Source of the DNA: an uncultured Candidatus Saccharibacteria bacterium
Lineage (GTDB): Bacteria; Patescibacteriota; Minisyncoccia; UBA6257; UBA9933
Reading direction: 5' to 3'
Length of the DNA stretch: 64,000 bases
Assembly: GCA_964453135.1 (NCBI GenBank)
Contig: CAYVOL010000003.1
Coordinates: 33,976 to 97,975 of the forward strand
The notes under the pieces were generated by a model that saw only the letters and a program-made list of their open reading frames with translations, did not search any database and was not told the origin of the DNA. This document shows, piece after piece, positions 3,092-48,246 of this stretch (its first letter is position 1; every line of letters begins with the position of its first letter). Position numbers and translations under genes: made by a program.

Positions 3092-3151
3092 ATTGATCCG
3101 GAATTTTGAAACGTGGAACTTGAAATTTGAAATTTCAATATTGAAATCTTT

Positions 3152-4435: not shown

Positions 4436-4485
4436 TACCCGTAAATTATAAATTAGTTTCACGGTTCAAGTTTTAAGTTTTTCGC

Positions 4486-10689: not shown

Positions 10690-11250
10690 ATGAAAAAAAA
10701 TCTACAACCCAAAGCTCAAAGCTCAAAGCTCAAAGCTAGTCCGAGAGGTTTTTCCATAGTGGAACTTATAATGGCCACGGCTTTGTTTGTTATTATTCTT
10801 TCTATTATAGTCAGCATTTATTTGCGTTCTTTAGAGACGCAAAAAGCCACCCTCCATCTGATAGGAGCCAATGACAATCTGGTTTTAGCAGTGGAAGAAA
10901 TAGCGCGCGACATAAGGAACGGCACGGATTTTAACGAAGGCGACCCGAATTGTTCCAATAACGGCTTTGGCTCGGGATTGGAGTTTACTATTTATACGGG
11001 AGAAAAATTCTGTTATCGTTTTAACGGCTCCGACGCAATTGAAAAAGGAGTTTTTAATACATCAACCGGCAACTTCGATTTTCTAAAAATTACTTCCGAC
11101 GATATTCAAATCAGCGATTTCAAGATACAGAAGATTTCAGGGTTTTCCGTGCCGCGGGTCGTTGTTTTTTTCGCCGTGTCGTCCAAGAACGGCGTTTTGC
11201 GGGGAGTAAAGACTTACATTCAAACCACAGTCAGCGCGAGAAACATCTAA
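10690..11250 (+). CDS. pseudopilin / minor pilin (prepilin-type)
   Basis: Leader is MKKNLQPKAQSSKLKASPRG|FSIVELIMATALFVIILSII. The leader is encoded in part by a 7-nt tandem array (caaagct x4). Confidence 0.7.
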   Translation: MKKNLQPKAQSSKLKASPRGFSIVELIMATALFVIILSIIVSIYLRSLETQKATLHLIGANDNLVLAVEEIARDIRNGTDFNEGDPNCSNNGFGSGLEFTIYTGEKFCYRFNGSDAIEKGVFNTSTGNFDFLKITSDDIQISDFKIQKISGFSVPRVVVFFAVSSKNGVLRGVKTYIQTTVSARNI

Positions 11251-11332
11251 TCTTTTAACTTGTAGCATGAAACGTGAAACGCAAAAAAATCTCTTACAAG
11301 GTTACACGCGTTATTTACATGCCATGTGCTAT

Positions 11333-11776
11333 ATGACTAATTATTTACTGCAAAACCTAATAAAACGTTATACGTTATATGTTATACGTTATACGGACAA
11401 GAGGGGGCAGTTGATGATTTTAACGGTTTTGCTTTTGGGCGGGGTTATTATCGGCGTTACTTCCGTGGTAAGTTCATTGATTGTGTATAAAGTCCGTCAG
11501 GCAACCGACGTGGCTGATTCGGCCAAGGCCATTTTCTCCGCGGACGCTGGCCGGGAATTTGAGCTTTATCGCGCCAAAACGGGGTTAGGCGTGCCTTGCC
11601 CTTCTTTCTCCAACGGAGCGAGTTTTCATACCGAGGTAACATACGATGATTCTTCCGGCTTGCTCACTCTTTTTTCCAAAGGAAGCGGAATTAACAACAA
11701 CCGCATTTGGCACGAATTTTTCGCCTCTTCCACTATCGCCACTTCCAGCTATCCCATTAATAAAGATTGCCAATAA
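11333..11776 (+). CDS. hypothetical membrane protein, possibly a GspK/PilX-like minor pilin lacking Glu5
   Basis: The sequence ...DKRG|QLMILTVLLLGGVIIGVTSVV has a Gly before a hydrophobic helix but no Glu5. The start is ambiguous: the ORF opens at 11267, with ATGs at 11324, 11333 and 11414. A 7-nt x4 array (acgttat) lies in the putative leader region. Confidence 0.35.
   Translation: MTNYLLQNLIKRYTLYVIRYTDKRGQLMILTVLLLGGVIIGVTSVVSSLIVYKVRQATDVADSAKAIFSADAGREFELYRAKTGLGVPCPSFSNGASFHTEVTYDDSSGLLTLFSKGSGINNNRIWHEFFASSTIATSSYPINKDCQ
11365..11396 (+). repeat. heptanucleotide tandem repeat (acgttat x4) in the 5' region of a pilin-like ORF
   Basis: Direct reading of acgttat acgttat atgttat acgttat. 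Confidence 0.8.
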
Positions 11777-11824
11777 AAGTTATCCCCATCCCTTCGTTGA
11801 CAGGAGTTGAGTGAATGATAAAAT
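11776..11824 (+). promoter_or_regulatory. sigma70-like promoter with upstream AAAGTTATCCCCAT motif (left cassette)
   Basis: The elements are aaagttatccccat (11776-11789), TTGACA (11797-11802), a 16-nt spacer and TAAAAT (11819-11824), about 108 nt upstream of the ATG at 11932. Confidence 0.5.
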
Positions 11825-11931
11825 TAGTAATAATCACAAAACATGAAACGTAAATCTTGAAACTGGAGACAAACAATTGAGACAAGCTCCGAGTTTCAGG
11901 GTTCAAGTTTTATGTTTTAAGATTTTCTCCT

Positions 11932-13023
11932 ATGTTCAAATCTCCTCTTTTCTATATTAATTTAGTTCTTTTAGTAATGATTGTCAGTTTGGCATTGAGC
12001 GTTAATGTCAGCAATTCCCATCTTCCCAATTTTCTCAAAAAAGCCATTGCCCAGGTGCAGTCAATAACCGGCAGCGGCACCACCAACTATCTGGCTGTTT
12101 TCGGACAAACTTCCCCTTCCTATACCATCGGCAATTCCATTATTTATGACAATGGAACTAATGTGGGCATTGGGACGACTAATCCGCTTGTGGGATTGGA
12201 TATTGCCGGAGGACGAGGCATTCAACTATCAGACGGATCGGGCCATTATGTTTCTGCTGGTTTGAGCACTGTTACTCCCGGTTGGGCAGGTTTACATGTT
12301 GGCACCATTGCCGGACCTAATGTAGGCGGAACAGGAGGATTTTTTGCTTATGATTACAATACCAATACAGCAGTGATAGCAAGTACTTATGCTACCCGTA
12401 TTGCTTCTCGCCAAGGATTCATACAGTTCAATGCTTCTGATAACCCGTCCCAGGATCTTGGTCGGATGTGGATTATGGGAAACGGCAACGTCGGTATCAA
12501 TACCACCAGCCCTTCCCAGAGATTAGAAGTTGTTGGCAATGGCAAATTCGGAAGATTCTATGTTGTTGATACTCAATATGGCGGCGGTCCTTATGCTCCC
12601 GGCATCGGGACAGATGGAACCAACACCGGCGTTGCCGCAAATGGTGGAGGATTTTACGTCCTCAGTGGTCCTTCTGGCGCTTATGGCAATACTTATGGAA
12701 ATGATTATTGGATTAACTCTGTCGGCAAATGGGCGAGTCAGATGGGGGGAGGATTTGGCTCTTGGAGCGGCCCGTATAGTACGAACACCGCATATACTGC
12801 GGCGACTGACGGATTTGTTGTCGGATATACTTACGCAGGGGGCGATGTTTATTGCGGAGGTTATATTGACACTCCGTTGGGGGTTCGTCGTCAAGATGGC
12901 AGATCAAATCATGATGGCGCACAAGGGACCTATATGGTTCCGGTGCGAAAGGGAGATACCTGGCAGGTAACAGACACCGGTGGTTGCGGATGGACTATTT
13001 ATTGGTTGCCTGCTGGCAGTTGA
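11932..13023 (+). CDS. glycine-rich secreted protein with tail-fibre-like NVGIGTTNP / GINTTSPSQ-LEV repeats (cassette copy A)
   Basis: Signal-peptide-like N-terminus (MFKSPLFYINLVLLVMIVSLALS). Gly/Asn/Thr-rich repeats are of the kind seen in phage tail-fibre and beta-helix adhesin proteins. The first ~85 aa are nearly identical to the minus-strand paralog at 20128-21141. Confidence 0.6.
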   Translation: MFKSPLFYINLVLLVMIVSLALSVNVSNSHLPNFLKKAIAQVQSITGSGTTNYLAVFGQTSPSYTIGNSIIYDNGTNVGIGTTNPLVGLDIAGGRGIQLSDGSGHYVSAGLSTVTPGWAGLHVGTIAGPNVGGTGGFFAYDYNTNTAVIASTYATRIASRQGFIQFNASDNPSQDLGRMWIMGNGNVGINTTSPSQRLEVVGNGKFGRFYVVDTQYGGGPYAPGIGTDGTNTGVAANGGGFYVLSGPSGAYGNTYGNDYWINSVGKWASQMGGGFGSWSGPYSTNTAYTAATDGFVVGYTYAGGDVYCGGYIDTPLGVRRQDGRSNHDGAQGTYMVPVRKGDTWQVTDTGGCGWTIYWLPAGS

Positions 13024-13030
13024 TATAAAT

Positions 13031-13588
13031 ATGAATCATCGTTCTTATTATTATTTTAATCCAGTGGTAAAAATTGTTGTGGCGCTTTTGGTAATTATTT
13101 TGTCTTTTGGCTGGGGCAGTTATTTGGGCAAGCAAAACGAAGCGCGAAAAAATAAAGACAGCGTAGATGGCGCGGTAAGAGAAGCGATGGCGGAGATATT
13201 CGGCAAAGTGTCCGCCAATAATTTGCAAGGGAGAATAGTTTCTGTTTCGGCGGATAAAAAATCAATCGTCGTGGAAATCCCGAGCGTTTTCGGTTTTCCT
13301 CTGCCTAAAAGTTATCAAGACAAGATATTGACGCTTCCCGCTTCAGTGGAAATCATCATGGCCGAGCAGAAAACAGCGCAAGAGTTTGAAAAAGAACTAT
13401 CTTCTTCTAAAAAGAAATCGGGGAGTTTCGGTTTTGTTCCGCCGTCGCCGGTTGTCAATAAGGCGATTTCCGTTGACGAATTGAAAGCCGGAGATCAGAT
13501 AAGTTTTATTGTGGCGGATGCTGGAAAAAATATCCTGGATAATTTCTACGACGTAAATAAAATCGTCGTATCCTCGGCCCGTATTTAA
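13031..13588 (+). CDS. membrane-anchored partner protein of the glycine-rich cassette (copy A)
   Basis: One N-terminal TM helix then a soluble domain. It is about 40% identical over its full length to the 19553-20122 (-) product. The start was moved to the ATG at 13031, just after the upstream stop. Confidence 0.5.
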   Translation: MNHRSYYYFNPVVKIVVALLVIILSFGWGSYLGKQNEARKNKDSVDGAVREAMAEIFGKVSANNLQGRIVSVSADKKSIVVEIPSVFGFPLPKSYQDKILTLPASVEIIMAEQKTAQEFEKELSSSKKKSGSFGFVPPSPVVNKAISVDELKAGDQISFIVADAGKNILDNFYDVNKIVVSSARI

Positions 13589-13591
13589 ACA

Positions 13592-15388
13592 ATGAAAGTG
13601 AAAAATATGTTGTGCCATAAAAAGATATTATTATTGAAAAAACCGCTTTTCTGGAGCGGGCTGTTTTTTGCCGTAATGGCGGTGATGTTTGTTTCGAGCA
13701 TAGATTGGAAAAATACCGCCCAATCCCAGGTAGCCAACTCTGTTTTTGGAAGCGGAACGCCGCACTTTCTGGCCAAGTGGGTGGTGGCAACTAATACCCC
13801 GACTTTAAGAATAGATCCTGCTTCGGCTATAACTCTTGTCGGTTCCACCACGCAATTCCGCGCGTACTACGACCCGGACGGTCCGGGCGGTCCTTCGGCT
13901 GAACAAGACGTCACGGCATCTTCTGTCTGGTCATCGGATAATACTTCTGTTGCCACGGTCAACGGCTCCGGTTTGGCGACAAGCGTCTCTATGGGAACAG
14001 CCCAAATCAGCGCAACGTATTCCGGCTTAAGCGCCTCGGCTTCTTTGACGGTTACCGGGCCTGCCTTCAGGATTGCTCCTGCGTCAGCTACCACTCTTGT
14101 CGGTTCCACTACGCAATTTCGCGCTTACTACGATTCCGACGGATTATTATCCGGCCCCGAAATAGAAGTGACCGCTTCGTCCAACTGGTCTTCTAGCAGC
14201 TCTTCCGTTGCTGCAATAGACAGTTCCGGTTTAGCCACCAGCATTGCCATTGGCACGACCCAAATTGGCGCTTCTTATACTAATCCTTCCGGTGTGACAT
14301 TTACTTCCACCGCTGTTTTGAGAGTCGTTGCTTTTGAGGTCAGGCCACTCTCGGCATCGATTATCACTGGTGCCACTACGTCTTTTAATTCCTGGTTCTA
14401 TAACGGAGCCAGCTGGAGCAATGTTATTTCTAGTTGGTCATCGGCCAGCACCACTATTGCCACAATCAGTCCATCTTCGGGAAGAAGGACCGTTGCTACC
14501 GGTAAAAATAACGGCACAACCCAGATTAAAGCCAGATATAGCAGCGCGATAGGGTCTCTTAACGCAGCTGCTGATTTGACAGTTGGAGTCGCCGGTCCTG
14601 TTAATGGCGTTTGCGGTCCGGCTAACGGCGGAACTTACGCCACTACTCCGCCGGCGGGCGACTTATGTTCCAACGGCTCTGCTTCGTCGGTCTCCGGCAG
14701 CGGCACTCCCACTTGGACCTGGACTTGCAATGGCTCGGGCGGCGGGACCAACGCTTCTTGCTCGGCCACCAACAGCGGCATACCGGCAAATACGCCTCCC
14801 AGCGCATCAAGTTTGTCTATAAGCGTCGCTGCCGGCACGAGCGATAATTTAACCGCGGATTGCAAAATCAGAGATAGCGCTGTTTTCAACTGGAGCTTCT
14901 CCGACCCTGACTCCGGAGATTCTCAAAGCGCTTTTCAAATAAAAGTTTATTCTGACGGCGCGTTAACTAATTTAGCGCTGGATACAAACAAAATTACTTC
15001 TTCTGTTTCCTCTTATTCTACCTCAACTTTATCCGCGGGAACTTATTATTGGAAGATGATGGTGTGGGATAACCATAATGCCTCGTCTTCCTGGGTTATA
15101 GCCCCGTCTTCTTTCACTATCACAGAACAACAAGCGATTAACTTCACCTGGTCCCCCACAACTCCTATATTCAACAGCACGGTTACTTTTACTGCCAACA
15201 GCACTATTCCCATTGCTTCCTACTACTGGCAATTTATCAGCGGCAATCCGTCTGCAGTTTACGGCAATCCGGCAACCACTACTTTTTCCAGTATTGGTTC
15301 AAAGGCGATTACCTTGATTCCTACAACCTCAGGGGGGAAAACCTGTTCTATAAGCCGTAATGTTGTTGTGGGCGGAGGCGGAGAGTAA
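13592..15388 (+). CDS. large secreted surface protein with three Big_2-type Ig-like repeats, a Cys-rich module and a C-terminal PKD/Fn3-like domain
   Basis: N-terminal TM/signal. Three about 95-aa repeats (ITLVGSTTQFRAYYD...SASLTV), the first two nearly identical at DNA level. Then a CGPANGG...C...C...C segment and an NFTWSPTTPIFNSTVTFTANS PKD-like motif. Confidence 0.7.
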   Translation: MKVKNMLCHKKILLLKKPLFWSGLFFAVMAVMFVSSIDWKNTAQSQVANSVFGSGTPHFLAKWVVATNTPTLRIDPASAITLVGSTTQFRAYYDPDGPGGPSAEQDVTASSVWSSDNTSVATVNGSGLATSVSMGTAQISATYSGLSASASLTVTGPAFRIAPASATTLVGSTTQFRAYYDSDGLLSGPEIEVTASSNWSSSSSSVAAIDSSGLATSIAIGTTQIGASYTNPSGVTFTSTAVLRVVAFEVRPLSASIITGATTSFNSWFYNGASWSNVISSWSSASTTIATISPSSGRRTVATGKNNGTTQIKARYSSAIGSLNAAADLTVGVAGPVNGVCGPANGGTYATTPPAGDLCSNGSASSVSGSGTPTWTWTCNGSGGGTNASCSATNSGIPANTPPSASSLSISVAAGTSDNLTADCKIRDSAVFNWSFSDPDSGDSQSAFQIKVYSDGALTNLALDTNKITSSVSSYSTSTLSAGTYYWKMMVWDNHNASSSWVIAPSSFTITEQQAINFTWSPTTPIFNSTVTFTANSTIPIASYYWQFISGNPSAVYGNPATTTFSSIGSKAITLIPTTSGGKTCSISRNVVVGGGGE

Positions 15389-15419
15389 TAAGTCCGGTGT
15401 AATTTGTGATGAAAATAAT

Positions 15420-15453
15420 AAACTCCCCCGCTAAAGCGGGGGAGTTTATTTGG
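15420..15453 (+). terminator. rho-independent terminator
   Basis: Perfect 12-bp GC-rich stem aaactcccccgc / gcgggggagttt with a taaa loop, followed by atttggt, 30 nt after the stop of the Big_2 gene. Confidence 0.8.
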
Positions 15454-15487
15454 TGAGGAAAATGGGATAAAATTAGTTTTAAGCCAA

Positions 15488-18079
15488 TTGTTTTTGTTAT
15501 TTAATATATTCAAGTGTTATTCAATGATTTACAACCATCAGAAAATTGAAAAGAAGTGGCAAGCGTTTTGGGAGAAGAGCGGAATTTATAGAATTAAGAA
15601 AAACAGAAATAAAAAGAAATTTTATGTTCTGGATATGTTTCCTTATCCGTCCGGCGATGGGCTCCATGTGGGGCATCCCCGCGGCTACATTGCCACTGAT
15701 GTGGCGGCGCGTTTTAAAACAATGAAGGGGTATGAGGTTTTACATCCTATGGGCTGGGACGCTTTCGGGCTTCCGGCCGAAAATTTCGCCTTAAAAAACA
15801 AAATTCATCCGCGATTGGCTGTTGCTAAAAATATCAAAAGGTTTAAAAATCAGCTTAAAATGTTCGGTTTTACTTATGACTGGAGCCGCGAGATAAACAC
15901 CACGGATGAAAAATATTATAAATGGACGCAATGGATTTTTCTTCAAATGTTTCACGCCGGTTTGGCTTACGAATCTTTTGAGCCGATTAATTGGTGTCCT
16001 TCGTGCAAGACCGGTTTGGCCAATGAAGACTTGGAAGACGGACGCTGTGAGCGTTGCGGCAGTATTGTGGAAAAAAAGCCGTTAAGGCAATGGGTTTTGA
16101 AAATGACCGCTTACGCCGAACGCCTGCTTAAAGATTTGAAATTTCTTGATTGGCCACTTTCTATTGTTGAGCAGCAGAAAAACTGGATAGGAAAATCGGA
16201 GGGAGCGCTCGTAGAATTCAAGATTCAAGATTCAAGATTCAAGATTGATGTATTTACCACGCGGGTTGATACGATTTTCGGATGCACTTATGTGGTGGTG
16301 GCGCCGGAACACGAGGTTATTAAGAATTTAACATTTAGAATTAAGAATTTCGGGGAAGTAGAGAGATATATTGGGGAAGCGAAGAAAAAATCTGATTTGC
16401 AGAGAACTGATTTGGCCAAAGAAAAAACCGGAGTTGAATTGAAGGGCGTGGAAGCGATTAATCCGTTTAACGGCGAAGCGGTGCCTGTTTTTGTCGCGGA
16501 TTACGTTTTGGCGGATTATGGAACCGGCGCGGTAATGGCAGTACCGGCGCATGACAAACGTGATTACGATTTTGCTCTAAAATACGGTTTATCAATTAAA
16601 CGGGTAATTGTTTCAAATAATACACAAGTTCAGAATGATAATTCCAAATCACAAAATTTAAAACAAGCTTTTGAAGATGACGGGATTTTGGTTGATTCGG
16701 GAGATTTCACCGGTTTGATTTCGGCTAGGGCGCGGCAAGAAATGGCAAAGTGGCTGAAAAAAAATAAATTGGGGGAAGAAAAGACAAATTATAAAATGCG
16801 CGATTGGGTTTTCAGCCGCCAAAGATATTGGGGAGAGCCTATTCCGCTAATTTTTTGTCCAGCGTGCAAAGAATCAATCCAAGATCCAAGATCCAAGATC
16901 CAAGATTCAAGATTCAGTCAGGGCGAATTGTTAAACCCCGGCTGGATAGGGGTGGAAGAAAAAAATTTACCCGTAAAACTGCCGGAGGTGAAATCTTATG
17001 AGCCATCCGGCACGGGCGAATCTCCTTTGGTAAATATTAAAAAATGGGTGAATGTGAAATGTCCTAAATGTGGCGGAAAAGCCAAACGGGAAACCAATAC
17101 TATGCCGCAGTGGGCCGGTTCCTGCTGGTATTATTTGCGTTTCATTGATCCGAGAAATAATAAGGCATTGGTTGATAAAAAAAAGGAAAAAGAATGGATG
17201 CCGGTTGATTTATACGTGGGCGGGGTGGAACACGCCACCCGCCATTTGCTCTATGCCCGTTTTTGGCACAAATTTTTATACGATATCGGAGCGGTTTCCG
17301 CCAAAGAACCTTTCAAAAAGCTCGTCAATCAAGGGTTGATTTTGGCGGCTGACGGCCGCAAGATGTCCAAACGATGGGGAAATGTGATAAATCCGGACGA
17401 TATGATTGAGCAATTCGGCGCGGACTCTTTGCGTTTGTACGAAATGTTTTTAGGTCCTTTTGCGCAGCATATTGCCTGGAATATGGACGGGATAAGGGGA
17501 ATGAAAAGATTTTTGGACAGAATTTATAAAACAATATCAAAACCTAAAAGTCAAAGCCCGAAACTCAAAGTTAAAAATCAAAAATTAGAGAGATTACTGC
17601 ATCAAACTATTAAAAAAGTGACGGAAGATATCGAAGGTTTTAGGTTTAACACGGCGATTTCTTCTTTAATGATTTTATTTAACGAAATGGAACGAGAAAA
17701 CAGCGGATTAGAAATAAAACATTGCGAGTTATTTCTAAAATTACTGGCGCCGTTTGCTCCGCATATCGCAGAGGAAATATGGCAAAATTTGCGACGCAAT
17801 AATAGCGGTAAAAACGCGCGCCGCACCGTTTTCCAAAGCATTCATTCAGAGTTATGGCCCGGATATAACAAGAAATTGATTGAAGAAGAATTATTTGAAC
17901 TGGTGGTGCAAATTAATGGTAAAGTAAAAGACAAAGTTAAAGCCCATGCCGGTATTTCCCAAAAAGAAGCGGAGGAAATGGTTTTTGCTTTGCCTAAAAT
18001 CAGAGAGCTGTTAAAAGGAAAATCCGCGCGGAAAATTATTTTTGTTCCCGGAAGGTTGATCAATCTCGTTATCGCGTAA
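15488..18079 (+). CDS. leuS: leucyl-tRNA synthetase
   Basis: HIGH motif (HVGHPRGY) and KMSKS motif (KMSKRWGN), with a CP1 editing region. 863 aa. It contains two in-frame 7-nt tandem arrays. Confidence 0.95.
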   Translation: MFLLFNIFKCYSMIYNHQKIEKKWQAFWEKSGIYRIKKNRNKKKFYVLDMFPYPSGDGLHVGHPRGYIATDVAARFKTMKGYEVLHPMGWDAFGLPAENFALKNKIHPRLAVAKNIKRFKNQLKMFGFTYDWSREINTTDEKYYKWTQWIFLQMFHAGLAYESFEPINWCPSCKTGLANEDLEDGRCERCGSIVEKKPLRQWVLKMTAYAERLLKDLKFLDWPLSIVEQQKNWIGKSEGALVEFKIQDSRFKIDVFTTRVDTIFGCTYVVVAPEHEVIKNLTFRIKNFGEVERYIGEAKKKSDLQRTDLAKEKTGVELKGVEAINPFNGEAVPVFVADYVLADYGTGAVMAVPAHDKRDYDFALKYGLSIKRVIVSNNTQVQNDNSKSQNLKQAFEDDGILVDSGDFTGLISARARQEMAKWLKKNKLGEEKTNYKMRDWVFSRQRYWGEPIPLIFCPACKESIQDPRSKIQDSRFSQGELLNPGWIGVEEKNLPVKLPEVKSYEPSGTGESPLVNIKKWVNVKCPKCGGKAKRETNTMPQWAGSCWYYLRFIDPRNNKALVDKKKEKEWMPVDLYVGGVEHATRHLLYARFWHKFLYDIGAVSAKEPFKKLVNQGLILAADGRKMSKRWGNVINPDDMIEQFGADSLRLYEMFLGPFAQHIAWNMDGIRGMKRFLDRIYKTISKPKSQSPKLKVKNQKLERLLHQTIKKVTEDIEGFRFNTAISSLMILFNEMERENSGLEIKHCELFLKLLAPFAPHIAEEIWQNLRRNNSGKNARRTVFQSIHSELWPGYNKKLIEEELFELVVQINGKVKDKVKAHAGISQKEAEEMVFALPKIRELLKGKSARKIIFVPGRLINLVIA
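16217..16246 (+). repeat. heptanucleotide tandem array (caagatt x4) inside leuS
   Basis: The sequence gaa ttcaagattcaagattcaagattcaagatt gat encodes FKIQDSRFKID. Confidence 0.85.
16879..16915 (+). repeat. heptanucleotide tandem array (ccaagat x4 + tcaagat) inside leuS
   Basis: The sequence ccaagatccaagatccaagatccaagattcaagattcag encodes IQDPRSKIQDSRF. Confidence 0.85.
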
Positions 18080-18084
18080 TTCGC

Positions 18085-19536
18085 ATGAAATTCTACGACA
18101 CTATTTCAAAAAAGAATAAGTTGTTCAAACCAGGAAATTCGCCACGGGTTTCTTTGTACAGTTGCGGGCCTACGGTTTATAACTTTGTTCATCTGGGAAA
18201 TTTGCGCGCCTATGTTTTTGTTGACTTGCTTAAACGTTATCTGCGGTATCGCGGTTATTCGGTTAAGCATGTGATGAACATCACTGATGTGGACGATAAA
18301 ACTATTGCTGGCAGCAGGGAAGACAAAAAAAATTTAAAAGAATTTACCGATTTTTATCTCAAGGCATTTTTGAATGATTTGAAGGATTTAAATATCCAAA
18401 TGCCCGATGTTTTGCCCCGGGCCACCGACTACGTTGATGATATGGCGAAAATAATTAAGCGGTTAATCAAAAAAGATTTTGCTTACAAAACAAAAGACGG
18501 CTCGGTTTATTTTCGCATTGCCAAGTTTAAAAACTACGGCCGGTTGGCTGATTTGAAGAGCCGCATGAGGAAACAGACAGGGGAACATTCTAATTTAGTT
18601 GATAATTATAACAAGGAAGACGCTTTTGATTTTGCCTTGTGGAAGGCTTGGCGTCCGCAAGACGGAAAAGTTTTTTGGGAAACGGAATTGGGCAAGGGCC
18701 GTCCGGGCTGGCACATTGAATGTTCTGCTATGGCGATGAAATTATTGGGGAGCACGATTGATATTCATTGTGGAGGCGTGGATTTGATTTTTCCGCATCA
18801 CACCAACGAAATAGCCCAGTCGGAAGCGGCCACGGGTAAAAAATTCGTCCGCTATTTCCTGCACAACGAGCATTTATTGGTAGAAGGAGAAAAAATGTCC
18901 AAGTCGCTGGGAAATTTTTATACTTTGGCGGATATATTAAAAAAGGGATACCACCCTTTATTTTTGCGTTTGATTTTGCTGAAAACCCATTATCGGCAAA
19001 CTCTAAATTTCAGTTTTAAGGAATTTGAGGAGGCGGAAAATATATTGGCAAAAATTGACGATTTTATGTCGGAATTGGATTTTATTATTAAGAATCACGG
19101 GAGAGGGGCAATGGCGCAGACAAAGCAACGACTGACAAACATTGAGAAATTAATCGGAGATTGCCGCAGGAAATTTAAACAATCTTTGGATAGCGACTTG
19201 AATGTCAGTGAGGCCTTGGCCGTTTTTTTTGAATTTATTAACGCCGCCAATAAGGCTCTTTCGTTTTTGGATAGCCGAGAAGCGATAGAGATAAAAAGAT
19301 TTATTTTTGAGATTGACTCCGTGTTGGGGTTGATAGAAAAATTTTACGCAGAGAATAAAGAGAAATTAAAAGAGAGATTAAAAAATCCGGAATTAAAAAA
19401 ACTGCTTAAAGAAAGGGAATTGGCCAGAAAAAATAGAGATTATCCGCTGGCAGATGGCTTAAGAAGAAAAATTTTAGATTACGGAGTGATAGTGCGCGAT
19501 AAAACTGACGGATACTTACTGAAAATTAAAATTTAA
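18085..19536 (+). CDS. cysS: cysteinyl-tRNA synthetase
   Basis: The CGPTVYNFVHLGNLRAY and KMSKSLGN motifs are present, with a Zn-binding Cys/His context (HIECSAM...HCGG...H). 483 aa. Confidence 0.95.
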   Translation: MKFYDTISKKNKLFKPGNSPRVSLYSCGPTVYNFVHLGNLRAYVFVDLLKRYLRYRGYSVKHVMNITDVDDKTIAGSREDKKNLKEFTDFYLKAFLNDLKDLNIQMPDVLPRATDYVDDMAKIIKRLIKKDFAYKTKDGSVYFRIAKFKNYGRLADLKSRMRKQTGEHSNLVDNYNKEDAFDFALWKAWRPQDGKVFWETELGKGRPGWHIECSAMAMKLLGSTIDIHCGGVDLIFPHHTNEIAQSEAATGKKFVRYFLHNEHLLVEGEKMSKSLGNFYTLADILKKGYHPLFLRLILLKTHYRQTLNFSFKEFEEAENILAKIDDFMSELDFIIKNHGRGAMAQTKQRLTNIEKLIGDCRRKFKQSLDSDLNVSEALAVFFEFINAANKALSFLDSREAIEIKRFIFEIDSVLGLIEKFYAENKEKLKERLKNPELKKLLKERELARKNRDYPLADGLRRKILDYGVIVRDKTDGYLLKIKI

Positions 19537-19552
19537 ATACCCGTCACCCCGA

Positions 19553-20122
19553 TTATCTTTGCACGGATATTTGAGTAGGAGTAATCTCTGAAAGCAGAAT
19601 AGCTGATTTGCCTGCAGGATTATTAAAGGTAAAAGTTATATTATCTCCTGTTTTTAAGTCATTGATTGTTATTCCTTTTTCCGAAAAAGGAAGGGGCGGA
19701 GAAACGGACATCATGCCTCTGGTTTTTCTTGCTTTAGCCTGATATTCCGCAAGCTCTTTATTGAAAGCTTCGGCGGTTTTGTTTTCTTTTAGGGTTATTG
19801 CAACGCCGTCTTTAATCAATAAATTTTTGTTTTGATAAATTTTAGGGATATTGACGCCCATTATGGAAGGAACAATTACATTTATAGATTTTTCAGCAAT
19901 ATTGATTTTGGTTACCCGGCCGATAAGAGAAGAAGCCGCCATATTGCCGAAAATTTCCTCAATAAGTTGATTTTGCTGTTGTTGCGCTAAAAGTAATTCC
20001 TGATTTTGCCCGTATATTTTTCCGGCAAGATAGCCGAAATGATAAAGAAGATAACCCCCGCCAATTATCAAAATGGCAATAATTAACAAAAGGCCTGTTT
20101 TTATTAATTGAGTTTGATTCAT
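19553..20122 (-). CDS. membrane-anchored partner protein of the glycine-rich cassette (copy B)
   Basis: Paralog of 13031-13588 with the same N-terminal TM and conserved blocks (e.g. VSVSADKKSIVVEIPSV / TKINIAEKSINVIVPSI). Confidence 0.5.
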   Translation of the reverse strand: MNQTQLIKTGLLLIIAILIIGGGYLLYHFGYLAGKIYGQNQELLLAQQQQNQLIEEIFGNMAASSLIGRVTKINIAEKSINVIVPSIMGVNIPKIYQNKNLLIKDGVAITLKENKTAEAFNKELAEYQAKARKTRGMMSVSPPLPFSEKGITINDLKTGDNITFTFNNPAGKSAILLSEITPTQISVQR

Positions 20123-20127
20123 AGAAT

Positions 20128-21141
20128 TTATTGCAACGGCATCCAGTACGCCCATACATAGCAAGGTCCCCGATCTATTCCTAACGCTATGGTATAAGAT
20201 TCTCCATTTTTTATTGGGGCAGTCACGGACTCCGATTCAACACCGTTTCCGTTAATATTATTTTGAGTTATTTTCGCCCCGCTTGCCCATATTTCTAATC
20301 CACAATGAGGCCGAGTACCGCCACTAGAGGTATCGAGACTAGCGGTAACGAATCCATCGGCACTCGCGGTAGAACTATATACTGTCGGACGCGTTCCGTC
20401 GCCATTATATACTTGGGATGCCAATAGCGTTCGCGTTTGAAAACTCTTTGACATCTGGCTTGCCCATTTACCGACAGAATTTATCCAATAATCTTGAGCA
20501 TATACATTATTATAGGCAGAATTATTACCATTCATTACATAAAGACCACCATTGCTTAATGTGCCAATTACATTGCCATCAGTTCCAATTCCAGGAGAAT
20601 AGGTTCCGTATTGACTATCTCCCACGTAAAGTCTACCGAATTTTCCAATACCGGCAACTTCCAATTTTTGGGAAGGGCTGGTTGTATTGATTCCGACATT
20701 GCCAGTGTTGCCGGAAATAAACAGTCGTTCCGTATTGTTGGTGCCAGGGTTATTAGTTAAATCAGCTGAACGTAAATAAAAATTTCCGGAGTTTGGAAAA
20801 TATACCGCTCCACTTCCCTCTCCTCCCATGATGCCAATAGAATTTACCCGTATTGGACCAGCAACATCAAGTTTTGCATACTGGTTTGGATTAGTCGTAC
20901 CTATGCCCACATTGGTTCCGTTATCGTAAATTATGGAATTGCCGATGGTATAGGAAGGGGAAGTTTGTCCGAAAACAGCCAGATAGTTGGGAGTGCCGCT
21001 ACCGGTTATTGACTGCACCTGGGCAATGGCTTTTTTGAGGAAATTGGGAAGATGGGAATTGCTGACATTAACGCTCAATGCCAAGCTGACAATCATTACT
21101 AAAAGAACTAAATTAATATAAAAAAGAGGAGATTTAAACAT
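20128..21141 (-). CDS. glycine-rich secreted tail-fibre-like protein (cassette copy B)
   Basis: N-terminus MFKSPLFYINLVLLVMIVSLALSVNVSNSHLPNFLKKAIAQVQSITGSGT... is about 96% identical at DNA level to copy A, diverging after roughly 330 nt. Start set at the ATG corresponding to copy A (the ORF opens at 21162). Confidence 0.6.
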   Translation of the reverse strand: MFKSPLFYINLVLLVMIVSLALSVNVSNSHLPNFLKKAIAQVQSITGSGTPNYLAVFGQTSPSYTIGNSIIYDNGTNVGIGTTNPNQYAKLDVAGPIRVNSIGIMGGEGSGAVYFPNSGNFYLRSADLTNNPGTNNTERLFISGNTGNVGINTTSPSQKLEVAGIGKFGRLYVGDSQYGTYSPGIGTDGNVIGTLSNGGLYVMNGNNSAYNNVYAQDYWINSVGKWASQMSKSFQTRTLLASQVYNGDGTRPTVYSSTASADGFVTASLDTSSGGTRPHCGLEIWASGAKITQNNINGNGVESESVTAPIKNGESYTIALGIDRGPCYVWAYWMPLQ

Positions 21142-21251
21142 AGGAGAAAATCTTAAAAACATAAAACTTGAACCTTGGAACTTGGAACTCGTCTCAATTA
21201 TTTATCCCCAGTTTCAAGATTTATATTTTATGTTCTGTGATTATTACTCTA

Positions 21252-21301
21252 ATTTTATCATTCACTCAACTCCTGTCAACGAAGGGATGGGGATAACTTT
21301 T
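21252..21301 (-). promoter_or_regulatory. sigma70-like promoter with AAAGTTATCCCCAT motif (right cassette)
   Basis: Reverse complement reads aaagttatccccatcccttcgTTGACAggagttgagtgaatgaTAAAAT, near-identical to 11776-11824. Confidence 0.5.
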
Positions 21302-21307
21302 TGAGTG

Positions 21308-22297
21308 TTAAATATGTTTTTCTCCCAATACCACAGAAATATCTATTTTTTTGTTTTGCCGCAGGATTTTTAATTTTATTTTATCGCCGGCGGATAATTT
21401 TTCCAAAATATCGCCTATGGTTTTCCGGACAGTGACGCTTTCTTCGTTTACAGACAAAATGATATCTTTCTCGCGCAGGCCGGACTTTTTCGCCGGACTT
21501 CCAGCAATAACGCTTTCGGCAAAAGGTTTTTCTGATTTTATCAAGGCGCCGCAATTTACCGGAAGACGCATTTCTTTTTTGACATTATCGTCAATAATGA
21601 GATAACGCACTCCTAAAAAAGGACGTTGGATTTTCCCGAATTTTTTCAGGTCGGCCAAATCTCTTTTGACGATATTGATAGGCAAAGCGAAGCCGATATT
21701 TTCCGCATCGGACATCATTGCCATATTTATTCCTACTACTTCGCCTTCAAGATTAATTAAAGGGCCGCCGGAATTGCCGGGATTGATCGCCGCGTCTGTC
21801 TGAATAAGCCCGTGGATTTCTTCTTCGGGAGATAAGTCGTCAATTTGGGCGCTAATGGAACGGGAAAGGCCGGAAATGATTCCGGTGGAAACGGTATTGC
21901 GGAAAATGCCCAAAGCATTGCCGACAGCAATAACATTTTCTCCCAGTTCCAGACGGGAAGAGTTGCCCAGTTTAAGGAAGGGGAGGCGGTGATGATCTTT
22001 TATTCTTAAAATAGCCACGTCGCTGATGGGGTCGCGCGCCATAATTTTTGCAGGATAACTTTTATTGTCGTTGGTAATGACGGTGTAGCGGTTATTGGGA
22101 GAAGAAACAATGTGGCGGTTGCTCACCACTATCCCCGACGGGTCAACTAAAAAACCTGATCCGCTGTCAATGCTGGCAGGCGGTTTGCTGGAAGAAGATT
22201 TTGCTTTGGCAAGGCGAGATGGTGATTGAGCGACAGCGATGGTTACCACCGCGGGCAGAATTTTTTTGATTATCTTGGGAAGAGACTGATTTATCAT
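21308..22297 (-). CDS. htrA: HtrA/DegP-family serine protease (trypsin-like domain + PDZ)
   Basis: Catalytic Ser motif GNSGGPLIN, with His (VVSNRHIV) and Asp (DVAILRI) contexts. C-terminal PDZ-like region. N-terminal TM anchor. Confidence 0.9.
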   Translation of the reverse strand: MINQSLPKIIKKILPAVVTIAVAQSPSRLAKAKSSSSKPPASIDSGSGFLVDPSGIVVSNRHIVSSPNNRYTVITNDNKSYPAKIMARDPISDVAILRIKDHHRLPFLKLGNSSRLELGENVIAVGNALGIFRNTVSTGIISGLSRSISAQIDDLSPEEEIHGLIQTDAAINPGNSGGPLINLEGEVVGINMAMMSDAENIGFALPINIVKRDLADLKKFGKIQRPFLGVRYLIIDDNVKKEMRLPVNCGALIKSEKPFAESVIAGSPAKKSGLREKDIILSVNEESVTVRKTIGDILEKLSAGDKIKLKILRQNKKIDISVVLGEKHI

Positions 22298-23552: not shown

Positions 23553-23554
23553 GA

Positions 23555-23640
23555 AACTTGAATCTTGAAACTTGAAAATTGAATCGCGCAACTTGAATCT
23601 TGGAACTTAGATCTTGAATCCTGATACTTGGCACTTAATA
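23555..23640 (+). repeat. 7-nt-period tandem array (NNCTTGA units) between convergent genes
   Basis: Units read aacttga atcttga aacttga aaattga ... aacttga atcttgg aacttag atcttga atcctga tacttgg. Confidence 0.8.
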
Positions 23641-35422: not shown

Positions 35423-36223
35423 ATGGGCCAAAAATTAGGACAGCATTTTTTGATAAATAAAGAGAAACTGCAAAAAATTGTTGGCGCTTTGGAATTAGAG
35501 CAGGGGGATTTGGTTTTTGAAATCGGTCCCGGGCATGGGGAGTTGACAGAAGCCATCAAGTATCAAGTGTCAGGTGTCAATATTATTGCGATTGAAAAAG
35601 ACCGGGAATTGGCAGCGGCTCTAAAAGGAAAATATAAAGATGATTTACGGGTAGAAATTGTTGAAGGAGACGCATTGAAAATTTTGTCGGAATTACTCCA
35701 AAGGCATAATCTAAAAGATAAAAGCTATAAAATTGTTGGCAACATTCCTTACTATATTACCGGACATTTATTGCGGATTTTGGGCGAGTTAAAGAACAAG
35801 CCAGCGAGAATTGTTTTGACCATTCAAAAAGAAGTGGCGGAAAGAATATGCGCGGCGCCTCCGAGAATGAATTTATTGGCGGCCAGCGTTCAGTTTTGGG
35901 CTGAGGCGGAAATAATAGATTACATTAGCCGTAAAGATTTTTTACCGGCGCCCGAAGTTGACAGCGCTATTATTGTTTTGCGCCCGCGGCGCGCGGCTTT
36001 CACGCAAATTGGCGACGAACATTATTATCGGTTCATAAAAATTTTATTCCAGCATCCGAGAAAAACTTTATTGAATAATCTCAAATCTCAAATCTCAAAT
36101 CTCAAAAATAAGGAAGAAATTATTAAGGAATTAAAAAAAATTGGAATAAATCCGCAGGATCGGCCGCAGGATTTAGGTCTGGATAATATTATTGAGCTGG
36201 CAAAGAGTTTTGGTTATAATTAG
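35423..36223 (+). CDS. rsmA: 16S rRNA (adenine1518/1519-N6)-dimethyltransferase
   Basis: The GQHFL start, the SAM-binding EIGPGHGELT and the NIPY motif are present. It contains an in-frame aatctca x4 heptamer array (36083-36110). Confidence 0.9.
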   Translation: MGQKLGQHFLINKEKLQKIVGALELEQGDLVFEIGPGHGELTEAIKYQVSGVNIIAIEKDRELAAALKGKYKDDLRVEIVEGDALKILSELLQRHNLKDKSYKIVGNIPYYITGHLLRILGELKNKPARIVLTIQKEVAERICAAPPRMNLLAASVQFWAEAEIIDYISRKDFLPAPEVDSAIIVLRPRRAAFTQIGDEHYYRFIKILFQHPRKTLLNNLKSQISNLKNKEEIIKELKKIGINPQDRPQDLGLDNIIELAKSFGYN

Positions 36224-38262: not shown

Positions 38263-39804
38263 ATGTTGGGAAAAAGGCAAAACATAATTTCAGCGTCGTC
38301 AATGATTTTTTTGGCGATTTTTTTGGTTAGCGAAGTAGCGGGCAATATTGTTTTTGTTGAGCAGGCGCAAGCGCAGACGTCAACGGGAAGCATAGCGGGG
38401 AAAGCTATTGCCGCGGGAACGGCTTGTTTTTTAAGCACGAAAGTAGAAGATTTGGCAGTCGGGCTTATTACTAAACTCCCTCTATTCGGAGAAGATGCTT
38501 CAGAAATGCCTAGTCATCCTTACGCTGTTCCGAGTGTTAGTGTTAATTTGCCAAGCGAAATTGGCAAAGTCCAAACCTCCAATGCTTTGATGAAATCCAA
38601 AGACTGCATCCGCGATGTTTTGGCGAAAATTCTTTTAGATTGGATAACCAACGAAACCGTTAACTGGATTTCCGGTGGAGGAAAGCCGGGGTTTGTCACC
38701 AACTGGAAAAATTTCTCCAACGACGCTTTTAACGCCGGCATAGGGGAGCTTATTTTTGACGACGCGAATTTCCGATCTCTTTGTTCCCCGTTTTCTTATC
38801 AGGTGCGGCTTAGTCTTTTGCCGGTTCAGCATTTCTTCGGCGACCAGATAAGATGCACGCTTGATCAGGTAACGAACAATATCCAGAATTTTTACGATGA
38901 CTTCCGAAACGGAGGATGGGTCACGTATGTTCAGATGGCGCGGCCGGAAAACGATTATTTCGGAGTGATGATGATGATTCAAGACGAGGCTTTGCGCCGC
39001 GCGTGGGCGGAGCAAAGAGCCAAAGAAAACGAAGCTTTGGCCGGAAAAGGATTTTTGTCGGTGAAGCAGTGCGAAGAGTGGGATCCTAACGACAAAACCA
39101 AATGTATTAAAGAATCAATTGTTACTCCCGGAGACGCGGTGGGGCAGACTGTTGGCGCCGCCATTACCTCGGACGTCCAATGGTCCGCCAATATCAAATC
39201 CTGGGTAGCGGCTTTGGTTAACGCGGCTCTTAACCGTCTTTTGAAAGAGGGTTTGGCGCAGATTAAAGGCGGAAGCAGTTCCAGCGGATTTTATTTCACC
39301 AACAGCTCGCCAAGAAATTACTATTACGGGTCAGGCGGAAATTATAATCCGATGGTCGGTTATCAGTATCAAGCCAAAACGGATTTGACTGACGGAATGC
39401 AGAAAGTTTTTGATGACTTGACGGTGATCAAGGGCGACAAGCAGTCAACGTTGTCTTATGCCAGCTCTACTTTACAAACTCTGACAGCTCTTCAGGCGGG
39501 GAATTGCCAGCCGCCGGTTTCCGCCGCCGATATTTCCGACGCGCAGAAGAAAGTTCAGACTTTAACCAACGACTTGGCGAGCATTGAAAATTTGAGAATA
39601 AAAATCAACCAGTTTATTCAGTACATAGAGAGTCTTACGGACAGTCAATTTACTCAGCAGTTTTCCAGTTTGCAGAGTCAGTTCAATGATTTAAGTTCTC
39701 AGGCTTCCACTTTCGGAGATACTTATCAATCAGAGGCGGCTTTGTCCCAAGCCGAAGCGGATAACGCCGCGGCAAAGACACGAGCGCAAACGTGCGGAAT
39801 ATAA
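38263..39804 (+). CDS. hypothetical secreted protein (513 aa)
   Basis: N-terminal signal/TM (MIFLAIFLVSEVAGNIVFV) followed by a large extracytoplasmic domain. It lies immediately upstream of the VirB6-like gene. Confidence 0.4.
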   Translation: MLGKRQNIISASSMIFLAIFLVSEVAGNIVFVEQAQAQTSTGSIAGKAIAAGTACFLSTKVEDLAVGLITKLPLFGEDASEMPSHPYAVPSVSVNLPSEIGKVQTSNALMKSKDCIRDVLAKILLDWITNETVNWISGGGKPGFVTNWKNFSNDAFNAGIGELIFDDANFRSLCSPFSYQVRLSLLPVQHFFGDQIRCTLDQVTNNIQNFYDDFRNGGWVTYVQMARPENDYFGVMMMIQDEALRRAWAEQRAKENEALAGKGFLSVKQCEEWDPNDKTKCIKESIVTPGDAVGQTVGAAITSDVQWSANIKSWVAALVNAALNRLLKEGLAQIKGGSSSSGFYFTNSSPRNYYYGSGGNYNPMVGYQYQAKTDLTDGMQKVFDDLTVIKGDKQSTLSYASSTLQTLTALQAGNCQPPVSAADISDAQKKVQTLTNDLASIENLRIKINQFIQYIESLTDSQFTQQFSSLQSQFNDLSSQASTFGDTYQSEAALSQAEADNAAAKTRAQTCGI

Positions 39805-39809
39805 TAAAA

Positions 39810-42197: not shown

Positions 42198-42202
42198 AAA
42201 AT

Positions 42203-43903: not shown

Positions 43904-44032
43904 ATAAAACTTGAATCTTAAAACTCAAATCTTGAATTTTAAAATCACAACGAGAACTCTAAACTTGGAAATTCAGTCACAGATATTTTTTAATAGAGAT
44001 TTTGGGTTTTCTTTCTCTAGTTTTGTTATTTT

Positions 44033-44548
44033 ATGCAGTTTCAAACTCCTCAATTTATTGAAATAGAAGATAAGATTTGGGGACCTTTTTCTTTAAGGGA
44101 GCTTTTGTATTTAATCGCCGGAGGGGCGGTTAGTTTATTTGCTTTTTATTTATTTAAATTCTGGCTGGCGGCCGTTACCACCGCGCTGGCGGCTTCTTTA
44201 AGTTTGTCTTTCGCTCTAATCAGGTATAACGGTCAGCCTTTTCATAGGCTCGTCTTTTCCGTTTTTTATTATTTTTGGCATCCGCGTTTTTATTTGTGGC
44301 AAAGGCAGATACAGGAGAAAACCATTGATATTCCGGAATTTTCCGTTTTGAACAAGCGTAAGACCTTGAAAGAACTGGCCAGCGAAATGCCGTCCGTAAA
44401 GCAGTTGTGGATGCAGATGATGACGGCTAAGAATCCCATTCCGGCGCGGGAAAAAGCCGTCAACATTGATCGCATCACCGACAGATTTTCTTTATTTAGG
44501 AAATTAAGTGGAGAGAGAGAGGTGGCGAGAAGAATTGATTATCGTTGA
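44033..44548 (+). CDS. PrgI/VirB3-like small membrane protein
   Basis: The N-terminus QFIEIEDKIWGPFSLRELLYLIAGGAVSLFAFYLF fits the PrgI-family pattern (..I.G.fs.Rq...l..g.. + 2 TM). It sits directly upstream of VirB4, as in Gram-positive T4SS loci. Confidence 0.5.
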   Translation: MQFQTPQFIEIEDKIWGPFSLRELLYLIAGGAVSLFAFYLFKFWLAAVTTALAASLSLSFALIRYNGQPFHRLVFSVFYYFWHPRFYLWQRQIQEKTIDIPEFSVLNKRKTLKELASEMPSVKQLWMQMMTAKNPIPAREKAVNIDRITDRFSLFRKLSGEREVARRIDYR

Positions 44549-44607
44549 TTGGTGGCAAGAATCCGTTGGATTGGTTATTATAGTTTGATAGGGTAAATAA
44601 TTTTATT

Positions 44608-47013: not shown

Positions 47014-47017
47014 TTAA

Positions 47018-48237: not shown

Positions 48238-48246
48238 ACTATAGAA

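Follow-up and report, generated by a model that had tools for sequence, protein, structure and literature searches.

Two paralogous fibre operons, lying on opposite strands around the genes leuS and cysS, were found in a 64,000-nt stretch of DNA (hereafter the window; GenBank assembly GCA_964453135.1, contig CAYVOL010000003.1, positions 33,976 to 97,975) of an uncultured Candidatus Saccharibacteria bacterium. Each operon, or cassette, consists of a gene for a glycine-rich fibre-like protein (fibA, fibB) followed by a gene for a membrane-anchored partner protein (parA, parB). The explanation that we regard as probable is that the two cassettes are old inverted paralogues, the 5' tract of which has been kept alike by homologous recombination, and that crossovers between the copies have taken place occasionally.

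Inverted repeat and probable gene conversion

Listing of the open reading frames (ORFs) and repeat finding revealed two operon-like cassettes on opposite strands, flanking a Big_2 gene, leuS and cysS. Four adjacent inverted-repeat pairs turned out to form a single repeat, in which 385 of 414 alignment columns are identical (93.0%), and a blastn search of one arm against the whole window returned two copies only, on opposite strands and 8.7 kb apart. Hence the inverted paralogous cassettes proposed in a first-pass annotation, made from the letters of the window alone, were confirmed. The arms differ by 26 substitutions (22 transitions, 4 transversions) and two small indels. Each is made up of 157 nt of upstream and 254 nt of coding sequence, the coding part alone being 95% identical; arm A starts inside the stop codon of a pilin-like ORF and arm B 7 nt past the stop codon of htrA. 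The repeats of about 500 bp, 96% identity and 330 nt of coding sequence in the first-pass annotation were therefore real but slightly generous, since the repeat spans 411 nt. The elements of the two cassettes are as follows.

11775-12185, + strand: inverted-repeat arm A (promoter, 5' leader, first 85 codons of fibA)
20888-21301, - strand: inverted-repeat arm B (promoter, 5' leader, first 85 codons of fibB)
11775-12140, + strand: putative converted tract in arm A, 366 nt
20933-21301, - strand: counterpart of the converted tract in arm B
11932-13023, + strand: fibA, 363-aa glycine-rich fibre of cassette A
13031-13588, + strand: parA, 185-aa partner with an N-terminal transmembrane (TM) helix and a predicted OB/CusF-like beta-barrel (OB, oligonucleotide/oligosaccharide-binding)
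20128-21141, - strand: fibB, 337 aa, counted from the ATG homologous to that of fibA
19553-20122, - strand: parB, 189-aa partner of cassette B

The divergence between fibA and fibB was estimated by the Nei-Gojobori method on a protein-guided codon alignment. Over codons 1-69, synonymous divergence (dS) is 0.14 and nonsynonymous divergence (dN) 0.006. Codons 70-85 (IIYDNGTNVGIGTTNP) encode an identical protein sequence, yet the proportion of synonymous differences (pS) reaches 0.69, while dS is saturated at ∼2.1 in the rest of the fibre gene and amounts to ∼2.2 in the partner genes. Among positions with the same amino acid, the same codon is used at 62 of 68 within codons 1-69, at 8 of 16 within codons 70-85 and at 51 of 101 beyond them (Fisher p for codons 1-69: 5e-4 in comparison with codons 70-85, 1.6e-8 in comparison with the remainder of the gene). 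The boundary of the tract, between codons 69 and 70, thus falls within a protein-identical stretch, and the last 45 nt of the repeat appear to be conserved by selection on the peptide, because codons 70-85 are identical in protein but diverged at synonymous sites. The tract itself carries 19 substitutions in 366 nt, 18 of which are transitions, corresponding to a divergence of ∼5%, or ∼12-16% at neutral sites. These data support the view that the 5' near-identity reflects recombinational homogenisation and not only selection at the protein level. The gene conversion suggested earlier is upheld by the difference in dS (0.14 versus ∼2); the word “recent”, however, applies in a relative sense, given 19 substitutions in 366 nt, and the homogenised coding sequence is ∼207 nt rather than 330 nt.

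Conversion was also considered for the central GNVGI region of the fibre genes in the window, the protein sequence of which is 66% identical between fibA and fibB, more than between orthologues (52-56%). The candidate was rejected, as pS in this region is saturated (0.71).

An unrelated contig from groundwater (L001, JGI 3300025150) harbours two tandem fibre paralogues ahead of one partner gene. Their 250-nt 5' ends (167-416 and 1208-1457) are 91% identical, with a dS of 0.31 compared with 2.2 for the rest. Since these tandem copies are homogenised as well, 5' homogenisation would be a property of the gene family, independent of the inverted arrangement.

Concerted evolution in a related genome

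A 9,009-nt Logan contig of run ERR6221073, L089, was found through a search with the partner protein (67% identity). Its genes run in the order fibre, partner, Big_2, leuS and cysS, followed by a partner and a fibre gene on the opposite strand, which is the same inverted double cassette. The LeuS and CysS proteins of L089 are 76% and 74% identical to those of the window, and leuS dS is 1.44. A comparison of synteny in related genomes had been proposed as a check of the inverted arrangement, and L089 carries both cassettes in the same layout.

The L089 contig breaks off at both ends at the same codon of the fibre gene (∼54), and the first 30 nt of the two ends are identical. A de Bruijn assembly with k = 31 stops in this way at an exact repeat; therefore, the 5' ends of the L089 fibre genes are likely to be homogenised too. 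Over codons 54-69, nucleotide differences within a genome number 0 of 48 in the window and 1 of 48 in L089, and 12-13 of 48 (25-27%) between the genomes. Site-pattern analysis likewise detected sites with a within-genome pattern at the fibre N-terminus. Identity within genomes thus exceeds identity between genomes, which indicates concerted evolution and rules out simple conservation at the nucleotide level.

In the tree of the partner proteins, parA groups with the left partner of L089 (bootstrap 100%) and parB with the right one (99%). Since the partners pair by position across genomes, the duplication should be older than the split from L089, and the conversions younger and lineage-specific. 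The separate comparison of the 5' and 3' parts of the paralogue pairs, another check proposed at the outset, gave the expected contrast: the 5' parts are alike within each genome, whereas heads and partners are positional orthologues across genomes.

LeuS-anchored scans of GTDB genomes and JGI metagenomes yielded 160 loci with best LeuS identities of 58-69%; fibre or partner genes beside leuS were found in none of them except L008. This locus, from a more distant relative among the Patescibacteria, has fibre-like genes flanked by pilin-like genes and leuS, and downstream of these lies htrA in convergent orientation. The fibre-like genes are two in tandem (407-2705; 412 and 302 aa), with the NVGIGT motif and a different N-terminus. 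Such a neighbourhood implies that the pilus/fibre/leuS/htrA arrangement is older than the double cassette.

Exchange of the middle stalk modules

The fibres were split at conserved motifs, and the orthology of the resulting modules was compared between the window and L089. The segments in the window are listed below.

11932-12192: fibA, leader/anchor and start of the stalk
12193-12483: fibA, “long” middle module
12484-12702: fibA, central GNVGI region
12703-13020: fibA, distal head
20704-20880: fibB, “short” middle module
20494-20703: fibB, central region
20131-20493: fibB, head

The distal heads correspond by position: the fibA head is 59% identical to that of the left L089 fibre and the fibB head 46% identical to that of the right one, with 14 substitution sites and 10 indel columns of the positional pattern and none of the swapped pattern. 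The middle stalk modules are swapped. That of fibA matches the right L089 fibre (54%) and that of fibB the left one (49%), the other pairings being essentially unalignable; eight substitution sites and 35 indel columns show the swapped pattern and none the positional one. Direct blastn comparison agrees with the swap of the middle modules.

As both module types are kept in both genomes on opposite cassettes, non-reciprocal conversion is insufficient, and one or more crossovers between the inverted copies, that is, inversion, would be needed. Reciprocal recombination between the inverted copies having happened at least once is supported by these module patterns. Mis-assembly is an unlikely cause, since outside the 5' arm no exact match between the cassettes exceeds 14 nt. 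Two crossovers provide the best explanation of the module swap, one within the 5' tract, the other within the conserved central region. Together they would amount to a nested or double inversion with the orientation restored.

Orientation of the segment and the question of a switch

The genes between and next to the arms are the following.

11267-11776: pilin-like ORF (pil169), upstream of arm A
13592-15388, + strand: gene for a Big_2/Ig_Rha78A_N surface protein, third gene of the conserved module
15524-18079, + strand: leuS (ORF opens at 15488; identity by homology)
18085-19536, + strand: cysS (identity by homology)
21308-22297, - strand: htrA, upstream of arm B

Cassette A lies at the end of a type IV pilus cluster and runs on into the Big_2 gene; cassette B, between cysS and htrA, is oriented the other way, so that the promoters of both point inwards across Big_2, leuS and cysS. 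In four more distant relatives (L006, L007, L008 and L081), leuS and htrA are convergent, and in L009 the pilus genes are co-directional with leuS. Since leuS has the same orientation in these distant relatives, the window is considered to show the ancestral orientation.

Throughout the window, leuS and cysS included, GC skew is positive. The skew at third codon positions (GC3 skew), calculated by coding strand, follows the strand of the gene, + genes being G-rich and - genes C-rich (parA +0.16, parB -0.17). In L089, it is positive for leuS, cysS and the left partner gene and negative for the right partner gene. The strand-matching GC3 skew in both genomes suggests that the inner segment has long been in its present replication orientation in both lineages. 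Any inversion would accordingly have been rare, and reverted or doubled. As to the reversible inversion of the interval put forward in the first-pass annotation, the middle-module swap relative to L089 records at least one reciprocal exchange, but no inverted state was observed, and the present orientation appears ancestral and, by GC3 skew, long held.

All four fibre genes, in the window and in L089, have a coding-strand GC3 skew of -0.20 to -0.29 on either strand, unlike their neighbours; the value for the Big_2 gene of the window is -0.27. This negative skew is probably due to codon or amino-acid composition. The idea that the negative value of fibA might be a trace of a past inversion was rejected, as all four fibre genes share it regardless of strand.

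Pfam scans of ORFs of at least 120 aa between 629 and 60232 revealed no recombinase gene. Moreover, both arms hold promoter and leader, and the N-termini that they encode differ at a single residue, so that an inversion mediated by the arms would alter no product and no promoter linkage, and would not constitute an expression switch. Present-day switching of the segment is thus not supported by the gene arrangement. The exact runs within the arms measure 58, 51, 44, 38 and 35 nt, and with runs of this length, occasional recombination is still possible; outside the arms, the longest exact match between the cassettes is 14 nt. Two functional proposals of the first-pass annotation find no footing here. 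Inversion as a switch of surface proteins would be phenotypically silent, given the same promoter and leader and the near-identical N-terminus in both arms. Conversion would not generate N-terminal or receptor-binding variation either, as it is the constant N-terminal anchor that is homogenised and the variable modules lie outside the tract.

Promoters and leaders of the fibre genes

The upstream part of each arm contains a predicted promoter and a leader with a predicted hairpin.

11797-11824, + strand: predicted sigma-70-type promoter A (TTGACA, 16 nt, TAAAAT, TG extension)
21279-21252, - strand: predicted sigma-70-type promoter B, twin of A by sequence match
11832-11924, + strand: predicted leader hairpin of fibA (-32.7 kcal/mol, z = -5.6)
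∼21149-21242, - strand: predicted leader hairpin of fibB (z = -3.1)

Both predicted promoters match the consensus at 11 of 12 positions and are the two best sites in an 11.5-kb scan. The first 64 nt of the arm, proximal to the promoter, carry no substitutions at all, which points to selection or to a younger conversion patch. The leader is ∼105 nt long in each arm, and its predicted fold is a long, imperfect hairpin built of oppositely oriented heptamer repeats. In the stems of this candidate structure, six one-sided changes retain pairing via G-U or A-U and no pair is broken, a count drawn from two sequences only. The leader has accumulated 12 substitutions in 61-76 nt (∼16-20%), all of them transitions, a pattern expected of neutral decay after the latest conversion.

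A 1-nt insertion in arm B (21159-21162) creates an alternative in-frame ATG at 21162, which could add seven residues (MFLRFSP) and give a fibB product of 344 aa. The counterpart ATG in arm A (11912-11920) is directly followed by TTT TAA and forms a two-codon upstream ORF. The difference at the upstream ATG of fibB lies on the 3' side of the leader hairpin.

Tandem repeats with a period of 7, mostly (T/A)TCAAG(A/T)-like, are very abundant throughout the window. The pattern TTCAAGWTTCAAGWTTCAAG with at most 3 mismatches has 26 matches in the window against 0.07 expected. Examples lie at 3101-3147, 4458-4477, 10710-10737, 11365-11395, 16216-16246, 16877-16913, 21165-21189, 23553-23630, 36077-36106, 51821-51851, 52711-52756 and 62873-62925. 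Most of these repeats are found in short leaders directly 5' of genes, both fibre leaders included. Two arrays inside leuS encode KIQDSRF-type insertions; at the first of these sites, LeuS of L009 also contains a comparable insertion encoded by repeats. No Rfam family match was obtained anywhere in the window.

Fibre, partner and Big_2 proteins

The FibA and FibB proteins are 50% identical overall, and their residues 1-85 differ only at T51P (99% identity). The pairing of a glycine-rich fibre-like protein with a membrane-anchored partner, as first annotated, agrees with the glycine content of the fibres (17.9% and 12.5%) and with the hydrophobic helix at the N-terminus of all four proteins. 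No Pfam or NCBIfam domain and no Peptidase_S74 was detected in the fibre; the PHROG tail-fibre model 9942 gave a weak match (E = 7.5e-6, 65 profile positions). The stalk motif NVGIGTTxP...KL.V is common in proteins annotated as tail-fibre-like, some of which carry Peptidase_S74 (PF13884), and the stalk region (residues ∼45-215) shows 28-63% aligned identity to proteins on IMG/VR viral contigs. The viral matches are limited to the stalk motif and no match was found among GenBank phages; a phage origin of the fibre was rejected on these grounds.

The N-terminal module of ∼85 residues (K-S-P-L-F-Y, TM helix, S-[IV]-N ... A-V-Q-x-I-x-G-x-G-x-x-N-Y-L-A-x-F ... G-N-S-I-I-Y-D) is found conserved in some homologues of groundwater or other metagenomic origin, with ∼50-62% identity in other genomes. 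Part of the protein P0009, which has another N-terminus, matches the middle module of FibA at 54% identity. An AlphaFold2 model of FibA, built from an alignment of 17 sequences, was too poor for use (predicted local distance difference test score, pLDDT, 52.5).

ParA and ParB are 40% identical over 117 aa, in agreement with the first estimate. Their family comprises 27 clusters among 5.8 billion proteins, with no annotation and no Pfam domain; one homologue comes from Candidatus Azambacteria. The model of the partner (pLDDT 77.7) predicts a TM helix, a long helix and a small beta-barrel, and its closest folds, CusF and OB-folds, match weakly (for CusF, TM-score 0.71 normalised to the target, E = 9e-4).

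The leader of the Big_2/Ig_Rha78A_N protein resembles that of the fibres (K-x-P-L-F-W, TM, S-I-D ... Q-x-Q-V ... G-x-G-x-x-x-F-L-A-K-W). A protein with a fibre-type leader is the conserved third gene elsewhere as well (L088 2598-3770, L171 9885-11228, L170 10568-11281, L172 10503-12449). This leader, which fibres and Big_2 protein have in common, may act as a signal for export or anchoring that is specific to the lineage. The order fibre, partner, Big_2-like gene recurs in L084-L088 and L170-L172, mostly as a single cassette and sometimes near pilus genes. In L088, a trio of small genes resembling a ParE-type toxin-antitoxin system (1348-1990) is located between the fibre gene and the partner gene.

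Comparison with known systems

Abdulkarim and Hughes in 1996 and Hughes in 2000 reportedly linked the concerted evolution of tufA and tufB to chromosomal inversion. The fibre cassettes resemble this pair in being inverted paralogues on one chromosome that are homogenised within the genome by homologous recombination; paralogues are more alike than orthologues, and the tract of low divergence is bounded. In the tuf pair, crossover resolution inverts the interval, and the inverted state is selected against, so that the ancestral order is kept; the same may hold for the fibre cassettes. In Salmonella and Escherichia coli, up to 50% of the recombination events between tufA and tufB invert the interval (PMC6735719), and such inversions carry a fitness cost (PMC6735719; PMC5485169). 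Unlike in the tuf genes, however, only the first ∼366 nt are homogenised here, with a sharp boundary at nearly the same codon in two genomes, and the remaining sequence has diverged strongly. The interval measures 9.5 kb, against hundreds of kb for the tuf genes, and the fibre cassettes encode surface proteins instead of a core translation factor.

In Campylobacter fetus, S-layer variation is said to arise by RecA-dependent nested inversion between sapA homologues with a conserved 5' region, as described by Dworkin and Blaser in 1996-97. A single promoter is situated on the invertible segment of the sap locus, and inversion picks the homologue that is expressed. Common to both loci are a conserved 5'/N-terminal anchoring part with variable remainders and inverted cassettes flanking a multi-kb segment; they would also share homologous recombination in the conserved 5' part and nested inversions that reshuffle the cassettes. 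The single promoter is not found in the window, where each cassette has its own inside the repeat and inversion would be silent; in addition, there are only two copies, with housekeeping genes between them.

Site-specific switches of comparable topology include the G segment of phage Mu (Gin), the C segment of P1 (Cin) and the R64 shufflon (Rci). As in these systems, convergent inverted cassettes encode a fibre-like protein with a constant N-terminus and alternative distal parts, each with a small accessory gene. However, no invertase gene was detected within the range scanned (ORFs of at least 120 aa, 629-60232), short crossover sites (∼20-35 bp) are replaced by a repeat of 411 nt that includes the promoter, and the constant part and promoter are duplicated, one per cassette, with housekeeping genes in between. 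The partner, with its predicted OB-fold and TM anchor, shows no detectable similarity to tail-fibre assembly proteins. A review of shufflons provides the wider context (PMC11852207).

With phage tail fibres and Peptidase_S74 proteins, the fibres share the NVGIGTTxP...KL.V stalk motif and the weak PHROG match. They differ in matching no curated tail-fibre domain, in their cellular N-terminal TM leader common to the Big_2 protein, and in being encoded by chromosomal genes beside type IV pilus genes with no phage genes nearby.

Alternative explanations

The locus might be a programmed invertible switch, in which the 9.5-kb segment flips often and reversibly, through RecA as in C. fetus sap or through an invertase as in Mu G and shufflons, and thereby changes the fibre made or its expression. 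The topology is indeed like that of the Mu G segment and the sap locus (a variable fibre part and an accessory gene in inverted pairs), the exact runs in the arms would suffice for homologous recombination, and one reciprocal exchange is on record. Against this stand the shared promoter, leader and N-terminus, owing to which a flip would change a single T/P residue and no promoter linkage, the lack of a recombinase among the ORFs scanned and the ∼5% divergence accumulated in the tract. The strand-specific GC3 skew (parA versus parB; leuS and cysS in both genomes) indicates that the genes have long stayed in a single orientation, which is that of distant relatives, and no chimeric fibre variants were found among 5.8 billion proteins. 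We therefore regard a programmed switch as improbable. Much the same low probability is assigned to a mosaic by import, in which the 3' part of one cassette (stalk, head and partner) would have been replaced by horizontally acquired DNA, and the remaining 5' end would stem from a recent duplication. In its favour, the fibre family is modular, as illustrated by the similarity of the FibA middle module to P0009, and the parA-parB distance (1.35) is within the range of distances to other family members (1.28-1.46). Yet L089, with a LeuS identity of 76%, already has both types of cassette, each with its corresponding head and partner in place, so the 3' parts would be older than the split and the 5' tracts young and lineage-specific; the four partners also cluster together, albeit weakly (54%).

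An even smaller chance is given to selection without any conversion, by which purifying selection on the promoter, a structured leader RNA and the N-terminal anchor would account for the 5' identity. The N-terminal 85 residues are conserved family-wide, codons 70-85 are protein-identical despite saturated synonymous sites, the promoter is free of substitutions and the leader is predicted to fold well. This explanation fails to accommodate a synonymous divergence ∼5-fold lower in codons 1-69 than in the equally conserved codons 70-85, and the difference between genomes at the same codons (25-27% of nucleotides versus 0-2% within genomes) speaks strongly against it; L001 displays the same pattern with a different sequence. 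Finally, the repeat could be an artefact of assembly, a collapsed or duplicated repeat or a chimeric join, given that the sequence comes from a metagenomic contig and that Logan contigs are fragmented at the locus. Those from the two source sequencing runs, SRR5161805 and SRR5161795, are interrupted within the outermost exact run of the repeat (51 nt). The arms nevertheless differ at 26 positions and their flanks are distinct; with no exact match longer than 14 nt between the cassettes outside the arms, a mis-join is implausible. An independent Logan contig is 100% identical to positions 12925-17373, and L089, from another sample, reproduces the architecture. The L089 layout together with the Logan breakpoints at the exact run indicates that the repeat is not an assembly artefact, and of all the alternatives we hold this one to be the least credible.

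Several points weigh against the favoured explanation, old inverted operons homogenised at their 5' ends. The central region, which would have been the inner crossover site, is now 80% identical over 98 nt with a longest exact match of 14 nt, and a crossover there would now be very inefficient. The double cassette was seen in only one related genome, L089, the flanks of which are unassembled, and one inversion can be told from two by skew alone. The lack of substitutions in the 64 promoter-proximal nt could be due to selection rather than to a newer conversion patch. Surface-fibre function is suggested by similarity at the level of motifs, and the fibre model is unusable (pLDDT 52.5). One must also bear in mind that the conversion and inversion events were deduced from assembled sequence, none having been observed directly.

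According to the homogenisation model, two ancient paralogous operons, restricted to a Parcubacteria lineage of the candidate phyla radiation (CPR), would each consist of a promoter, a hairpin leader, a fibre gene and a gene for a membrane-anchored OB-fold partner. General homologous recombination would repeatedly copy the outer ∼366 nt (promoter, leader, signal/anchor helix and first 69 codons) between the inverted copies, so that the constant 5' part would evolve in concert in each genome while stalk, head and partner diverge freely. Occasional crossovers would invert the intervening segment, the exchange of middle modules in one of the two lineages being their record, and selection would keep leuS and cysS co-directional with replication. 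For this model, we infer a RecA-type mechanism, the two-step inversion, a surface or host-attachment function and co-expression of both cassettes.

Genomic context

Homologues of its genes place the window in a Patescibacteria (CPR) genome of the Parcubacteria type. The closest LeuS among GTDB species representatives, 58% identical, is from a Parcubacteria group bacterium. Pfam scans identified pilB, pilC, pilins, a prepilin peptidase and minor pilin-like genes upstream of cassette A.

Between the Big_2 gene and leuS there is a perfect palindrome with a 15-bp stem (15417-15450; AATAAACTCCCCCGC...GCGGGGGAGTTTATT), which is terminator-like and could be a terminator for both directions. The convergent genes cysS and parB have their stop codons 16 nt apart, without a hairpin (19536-19553). 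Within the Big_2 gene, a 77-nt direct repeat (13805-13881 versus 14066-14142, 82% identical) matches the tandem Big_2 domains.

Farther downstream, a cluster resembling a type IV secretion system (T4SS) extends over 38263-50404 and includes genes for a PrgI family protein (44033-44548), a VirB4/TraG-type ATPase (45268-47013) and a T4SS pilin (48247-49203). Ahead of these genes are three large ORFs without Pfam matches (38263-43903). The cluster fits the monoderm-type T4SS reported for Patescibacteria in an excerpt of PMC12102498.

Implications

All cultivated Patescibacteria grow as episymbionts on other microbes. Type IV pili are their only well-supported host-binding factor (PMC11623550). 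A bolder proposal can be outlined, which we consider doubtful as a whole, though less so than the alternatives weighed above. In an episymbiotic CPR bacterium that co-expresses two fibres for host attachment, nested RecA-type inversions at conserved stalk motifs would shuffle stalk and head modules between the two in a combinatorial manner. The trapped aminoacyl-tRNA synthetase genes would protect the pair from loss and force re-inversion, and the leader shared by the fibres and the Big_2 protein, together with the OB-fold partner, would represent a new CPR anchoring or export signal tied to the type IV pilus cluster.

The mechanism, homologous recombination between inverted paralogues, is well known; what is new is its occurrence in an uncharacterised family of CPR surface proteins. 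The locus offers a clean natural example of a conversion tract with a sharp boundary conserved between genomes, and also of inverted-repeat crossovers that would leave a module swap behind, the orientation of the genes being restored by selection. Fibre, OB-fold membrane partner and Big_2 protein make up a lineage-restricted, unannotated module beside a pilus cluster, two divergent copies of which appear to have been kept for a long time. A homogenised constant part combined with reshuffled distal modules is the evolutionary behaviour that would be expected of a structure in contact with the host.

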